Source of the DNA: Deltaproteobacteria bacterium
GTDB taxonomy: Bacteria; Myxococcota_A; UBA9160; SMWR01
Direction: 5' to 3'
Assembly (NCBI GenBank): GCA_032128375.1
Contig: JAQBGU010000084.1
Span: 32,001 to 96,000, forward strand
DNA length: 64,000 nucleotides
The position numbers were made by a program. How positions within the stretch are numbered: the stretch's first letter is position 1; every line of letters starts with the position of its first letter. Below are positions 33,001 to 36,000 of the stretch, one piece after another.

Positions 33001-36000
33001 CGGCGCCCACTTCATGGGGACCATGCACACCATCACGCAGACGCGCAATTTTCTCATCCTCGCCGACTCGGGAAACTTCAAGCCCGACCCGGGCGAGATG
33101 GGTGGCGGCAAGCGCACGGTCCTGATCGACTACGAGTCGCCTGTGTTCGTGGTGCGCAAGGATGACCTCGAATCGACGCCGTCCGGCCAGCCGGTGCCGA
33201 TGAAAAAATTCATGATCGCTCCACCGACCGCTCACCTGTATGCCGTTTACGACGACAGCGATGGGATCCGCGTAATCTTCGAAAACATGGATCTCGAAGA
33301 CCTCGCGATCTACCACAGGCCCGGCGATGTGGACGTGTATGGCGAACCCATCGATCCGAGCCAGATCGGCTTGTACAACATGGCGATGTCGCCGTCCTCG
33401 TTCACCGAGGTGGAGTTCGATGTGGAGACCGGCAAGCTCAACGGCCGCGCGAAGCTGCGGGAGGATTGGACGTGGAGTAAGCAGTTGTCGGCCATGGACT
33501 GGAGCCCTGCCGGTCTGAGCGCGCCGACAGTCCACCACCAGTTGGTCCACGGTTGGCGACCCCACAACGTGTCGCGCCGCGCCCTCGAGATCTACAAAGG
33601 ACGCGTCGACCCCGACGAGTTTCCGAGCGAAGAGACCCCCGCCACCTTGGTGAGCCTGAACCGCGGCAGTCTCGACGTTCGCAGCCGCTACGACTATCCG
33701 ACGACCGACGTACTGCCCACCTCGCCGGTTTTCGTGCCGCGCAATCCGGGGCGCGATCGTTTCGGATTGGAGGGGTCTGACCCCGGTGGCCACGACGGTT
33801 GGGTGGTAATGCCGGTACTGCGTGACGCAGGGCTCGTGATCGACGTCTTCGACGCAGACTCTGTTGGGAAAGGCGCGGTCGCTCGCTTGGCGGCCCCCGC
33901 TGGTGAGACGGTGCCGATGTTGTTGCACTCGTGCTGGATGCCGCGCGCGGCCCCCGCCCCGGCCGCGCAGCGGCTGCGGTTTGCCGACGATTTCGAAGAC
34001 GGCGACCTCGCGTTGCTCGACGATCGCTTGAAGGACGCCGTGCACTCCGTCGCCCGCGACCTCGCAGGGTGAGGCTGAGGTTTCCAACCCCACGATCAAT
34101 TCGGTCGCTCAGCCGCTACGGTGCCGACAACCATGGCCGCGTCCCATCCACTTCCGGCCGCCCGCCAGGTACGCCGGGCGCCGGGTTGGCGGCGCGGTCG
34201 GCTGACGAAAGACAATCTCTTGTGGGAAACGGAATCTCATCATGACGAAGCTGTTGGTTCTGAGCGGTAGTAGCCGAGCGGAATCCTTCAATCTGAAGCT
34301 GGCGACCCAACTCGCGTCGATCGCCAAACAGGAAGGCGCAGAAGTTGCGCTCGTGAATCTCGAGGACTTTGAATTGCCGATATACAATGGTGATTTGGAA
34401 GGCACCGAAGGGTTGCCGGACGCAGCCAGGCGACTCAAGAAGCTGCTACAAGACAACACCGGACTCATCGTCACATGTCCAGAATACAATGGCTTCATGA
34501 CACCCTTACTGATCAACGCGATCGACTGGTGCACACGTTCTGACGACGCATCTGTAGATCTGTCTGGCTTTGCTGACAAGACACTACTGGTTGCGAGCGC
34601 ATCGCCTGGTCCCGGCGGTGGGGGTCGCGCGAGTACTCACCTGAAAACCATGCTATCTGCAATTGGTTCCGTGGTATTTCCCCAGTCACTGACCGTGTCT
34701 TCTGCATTCAATGCATTTGGCGATCAGGGAGAGTTTACAGACGCTTCGATGGCGAAGCGCGCTCAGCGGCTCGTCAGCAAGTTCATTCAATTCAGCCAGC
34801 GCTTCGAATGACTCGCTCGGCTTCAGCTGAGCGGGGCAGCTCCGAGAAGGAACAGCGTTCGGATTCACCGAGCGCTGGTGTCGGCATCGGCGAAAAGTGG
34901 CTCATCAGGCGGGCTGAATTCGCGCGTCGATCGGAGGGCTGTGCACATGGATAGGCGAACCATCGGGCGCTGGAGCGCGCAGGAATTGCGCGACCGAAGA
35001 GCCAAGGGCGTTGAGATCGTGGTCGTCGATGTTCGCAACGGCTACGCCCGCGCTTTCGAACCGTGTGAGATCCCCGGCACCTTGTGGCTGCCGCTATCGG
35101 AAGTTTCTGAACAGTCGCACCGCTTGTCCCGGAGCGCCGAGATCGTCACCTATTGCACCTGACCAGAGGATATGAGCAGCGCCCGTGCGGCGCTGTGGCT
35201 GAACGAAGAGGGGTTCGCCGTCCACGTCTTGCAAGACGGCCTCGGAGCCTGGAAGGAAGCGGGCTACCCGACGGCTGCCGTCGATCTCGATGAGCTTCCG
35301 ACGTTCGATCCTGAAGGCACCGGCGCCAAGACCCCCAACGAAACGGACAGAGCCGCGAGGCAGCACACCTCTGCGTTCCTCCCGGGGCTGGTCGAGAACT
35401 ACGTCAACAAGCACGATTTGCCGATGCGACGCGATCTGACGGTACTGTTCGTCGACATCGCCGACTCCACCCGTACCATCGTCGAGCGAACACCTTCTGA
35501 GGCGCTTGCCTTCGTCCAGCGATTCATGGGCATCGTGACGCAAGGCGCCCTCAACTACTGTGGGGACGTCAAGGATTATGAGGGCGACGGTGCGCTGCTG
35601 TACTTCGAAACCGTAACAGAGGCTACGCAAGCTGCGTTCTCGATTCGGCAAGCGCTTGCGAACGAGACGCCCGAAGTCGGCGATCGCCTTCGCGCTCGAC
35701 TCAGCCTCGACACGGGCTCCATTGTCATTGGGGTCATCGGCACACCGCTGCGGCGGTCCGTCGCCCTGATCGGCGAGAGCATCAACCTGGCGGCGCGGCT
35801 GTTAAAGGAAATCCCCCCCGGCGGCATCATCGCGACCGAGGCAGTAGTCCAACGACTCCGCGACGAGACACCCGCGCTGGCAGCGCAGTTCAGCGTGCTG
35901 AACGAGCCAATGACACTCAAGGGATTCGAAGAAAAGAAAGTCACCGCCTATCGGGCCTCGTGACGACAAATCGACCGCGATCTCCAACGAGTCCCGAAAA

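Follow-up and report, generated by a model that had tools for sequence, protein, structure and literature searches.

The question raised by this locus is whether two adjoining gene calls (g01775 and g01776) on the forward strand of a 64,000-nucleotide stretch of contig JAQBGU010000084.1 (the window) are two genes, or one gene for a selenoprotein that is read through an internal TGA. Translation of positions 34947-35963 (+) yielded a single frame of 338 codons, including that for the putative selenocysteine (Sec72), in which the only internal stop is the TGA at 35160-35162 (+), codon 72, in the context YCT-U-PED; the survey's finding that both calls belong to one frame was thereby reproduced. 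The frame ends with a TGA at 35961-35963, gave full-length tblastn matches in 46 loci, and is preceded by a Shine-Dalgarno-like GGAGGG (34933-34938, +) 9 nt 5' of its ATG, as read directly from the sequence. The N-terminus of the nearest orthologue (L022) is MDRR, the same as that of the window protein. A promoter and terminator scan gave nothing above the shuffled expectation, and no RNA run holding the stretch was found.

The internal TGA almost certainly encodes selenocysteine, as judged from sequence comparison, and joins the two annotated fragments into one protein. The comparison was based on 46 orthologous loci covering the active-site loop, taken from species-representative genomes. 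At the loop column TGA was present in 42 of the 46 loci and Cys in the remaining 4, which extends to a wider set the survey's statement that the TGA is aligned with Cys in stop-free forms. Cys is the usual counterpart of selenocysteine in homologues, and an in-frame UGA aligned with such a Cys is a mark of selenoprotein genes. All 55 internal stops in these loci were TGA, with neither TAA nor TAG among them, but the 46 loci are mutually related and the TGA counts are therefore not independent events. The loop reads C-x-C in 11 of 12 full-length database representatives. A second TGA, which would give U-x-U, was found in 13 of the 46 orthologous loci, at the codon which in the window is the TGC (35154-35156, +) of Cys70, the residue at the canonical rhodanese catalytic position. 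SelA, SelB, SelD and tRNA-Sec are encoded in the same genome, all four with scores above their cut-offs; SelD itself contains one TGA, and the tRNA-SeC, detected by ARAGORN, has the anticodon tca. The notion that genomes with the Cys form are devoid of the selenocysteine machinery was rejected, as SelB scored above its cut-off in three of the four.

The 8-bp hairpin with the loop CGUGC that the survey had reported 13 nt 3' of the UGA was recovered as GCAGCGCC-CGUGC-GGCGCUGU (35176-35196, +), within the codons for SSARAALW. A selenoproteome review (PMC13188914) places the loop of a bacterial SECIS 16-37 nt 3' of the UGA and asks for a G among the first two loop positions; here the distance from UGA to loop is 21 nt and the G stands at the second position. 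Pairing was retained in 85.4% of the cells of the alignment, compared with 20-58% in slid controls, and none of 500 shuffles reached 85.4%. Regarding the pair 30-42, the combinations were CG (23), UA (14) and UG (5), with no unpaired case, and both columns are third codon positions, those of the conserved Ser78 and Ala82; the hairpin shows compensatory changes at synonymous sites. RNAalifold returned exactly this hairpin (-16.87 kcal/mol) for a 27-sequence clade that includes the window, whereas pooling all 43 Sec-form sequences did not recover it and gave no meaningful consensus (-2.14 kcal/mol), because the stem registers differ among clades; clade-wise folds work. The z-score of the 71-nt fold was only -1.29, and an Rfam scan of positions 34000-37000 at E values up to 10 yielded chance-level matches only, none of them to a SECIS family. 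MFE folds had suggested that Cys forms are without the hairpin; this was rejected, since in a shifted register all 8 pairs remain in L065, 6 of 8 in L060 and in L061, and 3 of 8 in L059. As three of the four Cys forms retain 6-8 of 8 pairs, the hairpin is not confined to the Sec forms.

Both domain matches of the read-through protein that the survey had listed were obtained again above their cut-offs. The rhodanese domain (residues 10-105; 34974-35261, +) scored 35.3 bits with Pfam PF00581 (cut-off 22.2) across the TGA, has high AF2 pLDDT values and matched PDB rhodanese profiles. The best NCBIfam match was NF041203 (rhodanese_LYCAU), with 56.8 bits and an E value of 1.7e-15; as already reported, this is below the cut-off of 115 bits, and at 338 residues the fusion also departs from the stand-alone length of about 126 residues that goes with that family. 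No stand-alone NF041203 copy above the cut-off was found in the same genome. The rhodanese domain is followed by a linker (residues 119-150; 35301-35396, +) with pLDDT below 50 and poor conservation. The catalytic domain of a class III nucleotidyl cyclase (residues 163-335; 35433-35951, +) scored 31.1 bits with Pfam Guanylate_cyc PF00211 (cut-off 21.9). The AF2 model (mean pLDDT 83.7) has two folded domains, and a Foldseek search matched CyaC (1wc4_A) with an E value of 4e-15 and a target TM of 0.76-0.83. The survey's view of the locus as one selenoprotein made of a Sec-rhodanese and a class III cyclase is thus upheld by the pairing of Sec with Cys, the covariation of the hairpin, the selenocysteine machinery, the two-domain fold and the structural matches of the cyclase.

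The motifs LFVDIAD, GDGALLYF and GESINLAARL are all present in the window, as claimed. D170 (35454-35456) and D214 (35586-35588), the two metal-binding Asp residues, are kept in 46/46 loci and align with the Asp residues of CyaC and OaPAC. N280 (35784-35786) and R284 (35796-35798), the transition-state pair (N-x-x-x-R), both occur in the window protein, and its clade retains the pair; across the family the Asn was found in 28/46 loci, being replaced in the other 18, and the Arg in 44/46. R251, R269 and K287 are invariant in the 46 orthologues, and an 18-residue block, CGDVKDYEGDGALLYFE, is almost invariant across phyla. In class III cyclases the base is specified by a residue pair, Lys with Asp/Thr in adenylyl and Glu with Cys/Ser in guanylyl cyclases. 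Neither pair was found here: D210 (46/46; K209/D210 at 35571-35576, downstream of C205 at 35559-35561) stands where CyaC and OaPAC have the Lys, and A273 (38/46; 35763-35765) in place of the Thr. The class III fold and the metal Asp residues of the survey's 'adenylyl/guanylyl cyclase' therefore stand, but the adenylyl or guanylyl specificity is not established, given this replacement and an Asn found in 28/46 loci. This Asp/Ala base-recognition pair, of which the Asp is invariant, may mean that neither cAMP nor cGMP is the product. The PADLOC model PDLC02367 (PycC) scored 43.9 bits over residues 163-309, compared with 31.1 bits for Guanylate_cyc, PADLOC models being without curated cut-offs.

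The scheme that we consider moderately probable as a whole is a 338-residue selenoprotein in which a C-x-U chalcogen switch acts on cyclase output. The hairpin just 3' of the UGA would recruit SelB with tRNA-Sec, so that selenocysteine would be inserted at codon 72 and would complete the rhodanese active-site loop, with Sec72 as the second residue after Cys70 (C-x-U). The cyclase, which by homology is expected to work as a homodimer, would be connected to the rhodanese through the flexible linker and FLPGLxxxY, a conserved helical segment. The C-x-U pair might serve as a reversible chalcogen switch that either takes up sulfane sulfur or oxidises to a selenenyl-sulfide, and its state might alter cyclase output, so that redox, sulfur or selenium signals would be relayed as a cyclic nucleotide. 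The protein is most likely a redox- or sulfane-sulfur-switched cyclase, and we infer that the rhodanese is the 'sensor domain', as the survey called it, that regulates the cyclase. A more far-reaching interpretation, offered tentatively and with the chances somewhat against it, is that C-x-U and U-x-U rhodaneses sense sulfane sulfur, peroxide or selenium status and switch the cyclase, which would make this the first selenoprotein to act in signal transduction and not as a redox enzyme; some relatives would add a second, putative Sec-containing peroxiredoxin-like domain.

The TGA could be a true stop, separating a 71-residue rhodanese fragment from a 263-residue cyclase that starts at the ATG at 35172. 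This agrees with the gene callers' annotation, with the start after the TGA in 120/120 homologues among the matches listed, and with the presence of an ATG four codons after the TGA. It is nevertheless very unlikely: the rhodanese fold would be cut at its active-site loop, 46 loci conserve the two halves in a single frame, the stop is replaced by Cys in 4 loci and in 11/12 full-length representatives, and the called start codons differ among homologues, being in each case simply the earliest M, V or L. Slightly less likely still is that a variant code or near-cognate read-through places Trp, Gly or Cys at the UGA, for which nothing specific speaks, though read-through is compatible with the sequence alone; TGA is the terminator of this gene and of many orthologues, homologues have Cys at the codon-72 column, the genome encodes a full selenocysteine machinery, and the UGA is followed by a SECIS-like hairpin. 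The least likely of all is a pseudogene or an assembly error at codon 72. The source is admittedly a metagenome-assembled genome of 249 contigs, but three runs, possibly those of the source samples, gave contigs with the same TGA, and a fourth run gave a separate strain variant that also has it; this variant is about 97% identical and has no indels and 13 synonymous versus 11 non-synonymous codon changes. In addition, TGA occurs in 42 orthologous loci, and the gene has no other stops or frameshifts.

A selenoprotein of a different kind is unlikely but carries appreciably more weight: the rhodanese would be a working sulfur or selenium transferase, and the cyclase-homology domain a nucleotide-binding or dimerising regulatory module or a non-purine cyclase, instead of the output part of a sensor. 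The replacement of the base-specifying Lys and Asp/Thr by Asp210 and Ala273, the loss of Asn280 in 18/46 orthologues and the higher score of the PycC model all point in this direction. Against it, the invariance of the metal Asp residues (46/46) and of R251, R269 and K287 suggests retained catalysis, the CGDVKDYEGDGALLYFE block has hardly changed across phyla, and no Pycsar-type effector gene adjoins the gene.

The count of 9 in 401 genomes that the survey gave for the fusion was reproduced, the own genome included, with one TGA in five and none in three of the eight other genomes of this phylum sample; the rarity that it seemed to imply did not hold, as the family is far commoner and extends over several phyla. 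It occurs in metagenome-assembled genomes labelled Binatia, Methylomirabilota/Rokubacteria, Myxococcota and Tectomicrobia, and is both widespread and routinely mis-annotated. In public annotation the call nearly always begins downstream of the TGA and bears the name 'class 3 adenylate cyclase', and at least several hundred public records of that name are shortened at the UGA, with the consequence that censuses of cyclase domain architecture and selenoproteome counts both miss the family. Beside the window gene lie genes for an FMN reductase and an NAD(P)H-binding protein. Across phyla, no effector or partner gene was found to be conserved at its side. Regarding the Binatia-type loci, a downstream NAD_binding_2 dehydrogenase occurs in nine and an upstream luciferase-like monooxygenase in six, recurrences that probably reflect synteny among relatives. 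In one locus (L058) a cNMP-gated channel lies downstream.

Four relatives (P0090, P0098, P0113 and P0115) carry an extra C-terminal Prx-like domain; FYRGEW is the end of their calls, at the very point where stand-alone relatives have TGA or TGC/TGT. DNA for this three-domain form was not found in the 401-genome phylum sample, in which only G001 matched, without the Prx part, nor in a 251-genome class sample or a metagenome scan, the latter of which returned only stand-alone Prx-like genes.

If the scheme is correct, the family would provide a selenium-dependent input to cyclic-nucleotide signalling, by which selenium, sulfur or redox status would control a second messenger directly, in abundant uncultured soil and sediment groups labelled Binatia, Methylomirabilota and Myxococcota. 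To our knowledge, the bacterial selenoproteins described so far are almost all redox enzymes. Term searches and passages of two selenoproteome reviews (PMC13188914 and PMC9312934) showed no cyclase, kinase or sensor among those listed, nor any second-messenger protein. Literature searches found no paper joining a rhodanese to a nucleotide cyclase, and no relevant paper on selenocysteine or a selenoprotein with a class III adenylyl cyclase or cyclase domain.

Among known systems, the N-terminal half resembles the rhodanese-like selenoprotein 'form 3' with a CxU motif, tabulated in PMC13188914 ('COG0607 form 2' in PMC9312934). In either case selenocysteine, predicted here as part of YCTU within a fold scoring 35.3 bits, follows the canonical catalytic Cys by two residues in a single rhodanese domain; however, 'form 3' proteins stand alone with about 126 residues, whereas the window protein continues into a cyclase and stays well short of the NF041203 cut-off. 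U-x-U variants, found in 13/46 loci here, are also described for the stand-alone family in PMC1976440. Prx-like thiol:disulfide oxidoreductase selenoproteins (PF00578, UxxC; same table of PMC13188914) correspond to the additional domain of some relatives, but the window protein is without it. The Pycsar pyrimidine cyclases (PycC) belong to the same class III-type superfamily; they are defined by a cyclase gene beside a gene for a cNMP-activated effector, whereas the window cyclase is fused to a redox domain, lies in conserved, housekeeping-like contexts and has no adjoining effector gene. Sensor-coupled, soluble class III adenylyl cyclases, namely CyaC of Spirulina platensis (1wc0-1wc6), CyaB of P. 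aeruginosa (3r5g) and the photoactivated OaPAC and bPAC (5x4t, 5m27), share the catalytic fold, the aligned metal Asp and Asn/Arg residues, and the order of N-terminal sensor, linker and cyclase. Their adenine-binding Lys and Thr/Asp correspond to Asp210 and Ala273 here, and where they carry BLUF, GAF or a bicarbonate site, the window protein has a putative Sec-rhodanese at its N-terminus.

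The rhodanese-cyclase gene is a single frame of 338 codons (34947-35963, + strand), whose only internal stop on translation is a TGA at 35160-35162 (codon 72) and whose terminal stop is also TGA; a GGAGGG can be read 9 nt 5' of its ATG on the + strand. With the internal TGA read through, Pfam places a Rhodanese domain at residues 10-105 (35.3 bits, cut-off 22.2), spanning the TGA, and a Guanylate_cyc domain at residues 163-335 (31.1 bits, cut-off 21.9); the top NCBIfam match of the read-through protein is NF041203 (rhodanese_LYCAU), with 56.8 bits below its cut-off of 115. Across the phylum (401 genomes sampled), a rhodanese-cyclase match occurred in nine, namely the window's own genome and eight others; of these eight, five have one TGA and three none. 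All items of the survey's finding, which had joined genes g01775 and g01776 into one selenoprotein, were re-obtained. The gene is well supported as that of a genuine selenoprotein, and its domain arrangement is new.

A search over one genome per species gave 49 rhodanese-cyclase loci, 46 of which cover the active-site loop in tblastn (L054, L069 and L070 align to the cyclase part only and stand outside the loop counts). Codon 72 is TGA in 42 of the 46 and Cys in four (L059, L060, L061, L065), and the Cys70 column is TGA too in 13, which gives a Y-U-T-U loop. All 55 internal stops in these loci are TGA, with no TAA and no TAG. At least 12 full-length forms occurred among the best matches of an exhaustive profile search (50%-identity representatives), and the loop of these 12 is C-x-C in 11 and degenerate in one. 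The TGA persists, without indels, in a strain variant from a further run of the same study, whose codon changes are 13 synonymous versus 11 non-synonymous; three exactly matching runs possibly supplied this DNA and do not count as independent. The window's genome encodes SelB, SelA, SelD and tRNA-Sec (anticodon tca), and its SelD gene (G000:C140:3308-4234, locus L010) has one in-frame TGA and is thus itself a selenoprotein gene.

As the survey had noticed, a hairpin, GCAGCGCC-CGUGC-GGCGCUGU, begins 13 nt 3' of the UGA. Its stem pairs were counted over a gap-free alignment of 43 Sec-form sequences, in which 85.4% of cells were paired, versus 20-58% with the 3' arm slid, and none of 500 shuffles matched the observed pairing or covariation score. 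Pair 30-42 is CG in 23 sequences, UA in 14 and UG in 5, and is broken in none; since the two columns are the wobble positions in the codons for the conserved Ser78 and Ala82, these changes are synonymous and compensatory. Pair 27-45 is CG in 28, GC in 4, UA in 2 and unpaired in 8. With G as the second loop nucleotide and then G or U, and with the loop 21 nt downstream of the UGA (27 nt when counted from the first UGA of U-x-U forms), the hairpin agrees with the bSECIS rule described in PMC13188914, which allows 16-37 nt. Counting against it are a z-score of only -1.29 (71-nt fold), the lack of an Rfam match in the scan around the gene (34000-37000), the lack of a useful RNAalifold consensus for the 43 pooled sequences (-2.14 kcal/mol), and the fact that three of the four Cys forms keep 6-8 of the 8 pairs in the register of their Sec-form sisters. 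Regarding single clades, RNAalifold returned the exact hairpin for the window/Binatia-type (27 sequences, -16.87 kcal/mol), a 5-bp version for the Methylomirabilota-type (10 sequences), and an 8-bp stem in shifted register for the Myxococcota-type (3 sequences).

The family is sizeable and systematically mis-annotated. Of 8000 candidates scored in a word-indexed protein search, 489 proteins reached E <= 0.001; among the 120 matches listed, query coverage never exceeded 78% and a precomputed rhodanese domain never occurred. Each of the 10 homologue calls that were aligned starts in the rhodanese domain's C-terminal half, from the first M, V or L, which indicates that public calls are truncated at the UGA. 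The source MAGs of the loci are labelled as Binatia/Binatota, Methylomirabilota/Rokubacteria/NC10, Myxococcota/'Deltaproteobacteria' and Tectomicrobia; certain placeholders (e.g., 'uncultured Enterobacteriaceae') seem unreliable. In a maximum-likelihood tree of 46 proteins (L048, cut by a contig end, was omitted), C-x-U (30 rows) occurs in all major clades; well-supported branches force at least three changes for U-x-U (12 rows) and at least two for C-x-C (4 rows). In 251 sampled genomes from the class to which one Binatia genome belongs, 16 had matches to protein P0098, 12 of them covering residues 2-245 or more. Genome G001 has a paralogue as second copy (L054/L072), with linker and cyclase and no rhodanese, which has a DUF255 thioredoxin-like gene on one side and an ECF sigma factor on the other. 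A Myxococcota-phylum genome likewise has a second copy, a partial one (G1005:C21:73016-73492; residues 36-191, two in-frame TGA).

Four protein records (P0090, P0098, P0113, P0115) have an additional AhpC/TSA (peroxiredoxin-like) domain at the C-terminus, and their gene calls stop at FYRGEW. In stand-alone relatives (L089-L092, L094 and L121 among them) the next codon is TGA in six loci and otherwise TGC or TGT (U/C-P-Y-C), which suggests that the fused relatives combine three domains and contain two or three Sec. A stand-alone Prx-like gene (L098:761-1000) reads FYRGGWCP*CN, its stop standing at the usual Tyr position between two Cys. At L029:4036, the gene of L071 from a Binatia genome, a TAG follows '...APSGEL' where Prx-fused relatives continue 'GELQQQLE'; the residues beyond still resemble those relatives and then degrade, and this tail could be what is left of a C-terminal domain since lost.

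AlphaFold2 (46-sequence alignment; mean pLDDT 83.7, pTM 0.72) predicted two folded domains joined by a low-confidence linker (residues 119-150), and the top Foldseek PDB matches were class III cyclases, the first being CyaC of Spirulina platensis (1wc4_A, E 4e-15, target TM 0.76-0.83). HMMER alignments to CyaC and OaPAC and column counts over 46 sequences bore out the claim that the catalytic residues are in place in the window protein: D170 and D214 (46/46 each) correspond to the metal-binding Asp of class III cyclases, and N280 (N 28, S 8, H 6, P 4) and R284 (44/46) to the Asn and Arg of the N-x-x-x-R motif. D210 (46/46), preceded by K209 (K 37, H 9), aligns with the adenine-binding Lys of CyaC/OaPAC, and A273 (38/46) with their Thr; the block CGDVKDYEGDGALLYFE, Cys205 included, is near-invariant across phyla. 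The cyclase domain looks catalytically equipped, its base specificity not being readable from sequence. A match of 43.9 bits to the PADLOC PycC models makes a pyrimidine cyclic nucleotide a possible product; no Pycsar-like effector lies near the gene in the window.

Cys70 occupies the canonical catalytic position of rhodaneses, with Sec72 two residues further in a lengthened loop. Throughout the family this pair is C-x-U, U-x-U or C-x-C, and such conservation speaks for redox or persulfide chemistry that uses two chalcogens, and against plain sulfur transfer. The putative rhodanese sensor is followed by the linker, a conserved helix (FLPGLxxxY) and the cyclase. Pair conservation together with this layout, that of regulated soluble class III cyclases, favours Cys70/Sec72 as a chalcogen switch that would control cyclase output in a homodimer, and a selenium-dependent signalling enzyme is plausible.

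The gene is flanked on its upstream side by an NADPH-dependent FMN reductase (34242-34811, same strand) and on its downstream side by an NAD(P)H-binding protein (36035-36673); farther away are genes for a CoA transferase, a carotenoid-oxygenase-like and a GST-like protein. The window also contains a 1417-residue ORF (27878-32128, - strand) combining DUF2339 (predicted membrane protein) and DUF3999. Among 47 loci with a strong match (window not included, L070 dropped by the E 1e-20 filter) no neighbour was conserved between phyla; Binatia-type loci have a dehydrogenase downstream in nine cases and a luciferase-like monooxygenase upstream in six. One of the 47, the Rokubacteria-labelled L058, has a cNMP-gated ion channel (Ion_trans + cNMP_binding, L058:2338-3600) directly 3' of the gene, a candidate effector.

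Among the open-access main texts searched, none connects a nucleotide cyclase with selenocysteine or with rhodanese. A term search of two selenoproteome reviews (PMC13188914, PMC9312934) did not return 'cyclase', nor, in the former, 'sensor', 'GGDEF', 'chemotaxis' or 'second messenger'. U-x-U has been reported in a stand-alone rhodanese selenoprotein family (PMC1976440), so the double-Sec loop is a parallel and not a new motif. Tables of both reviews include 'rhodanese form 3' (C-x-U, NF041203), with which the window protein shares its Sec-rhodanese module; unlike that stand-alone form it is fused and scores below the NF041203 cut-off, and in its order of sensor, linker, helix and cyclase it is like the regulated soluble class III cyclases.
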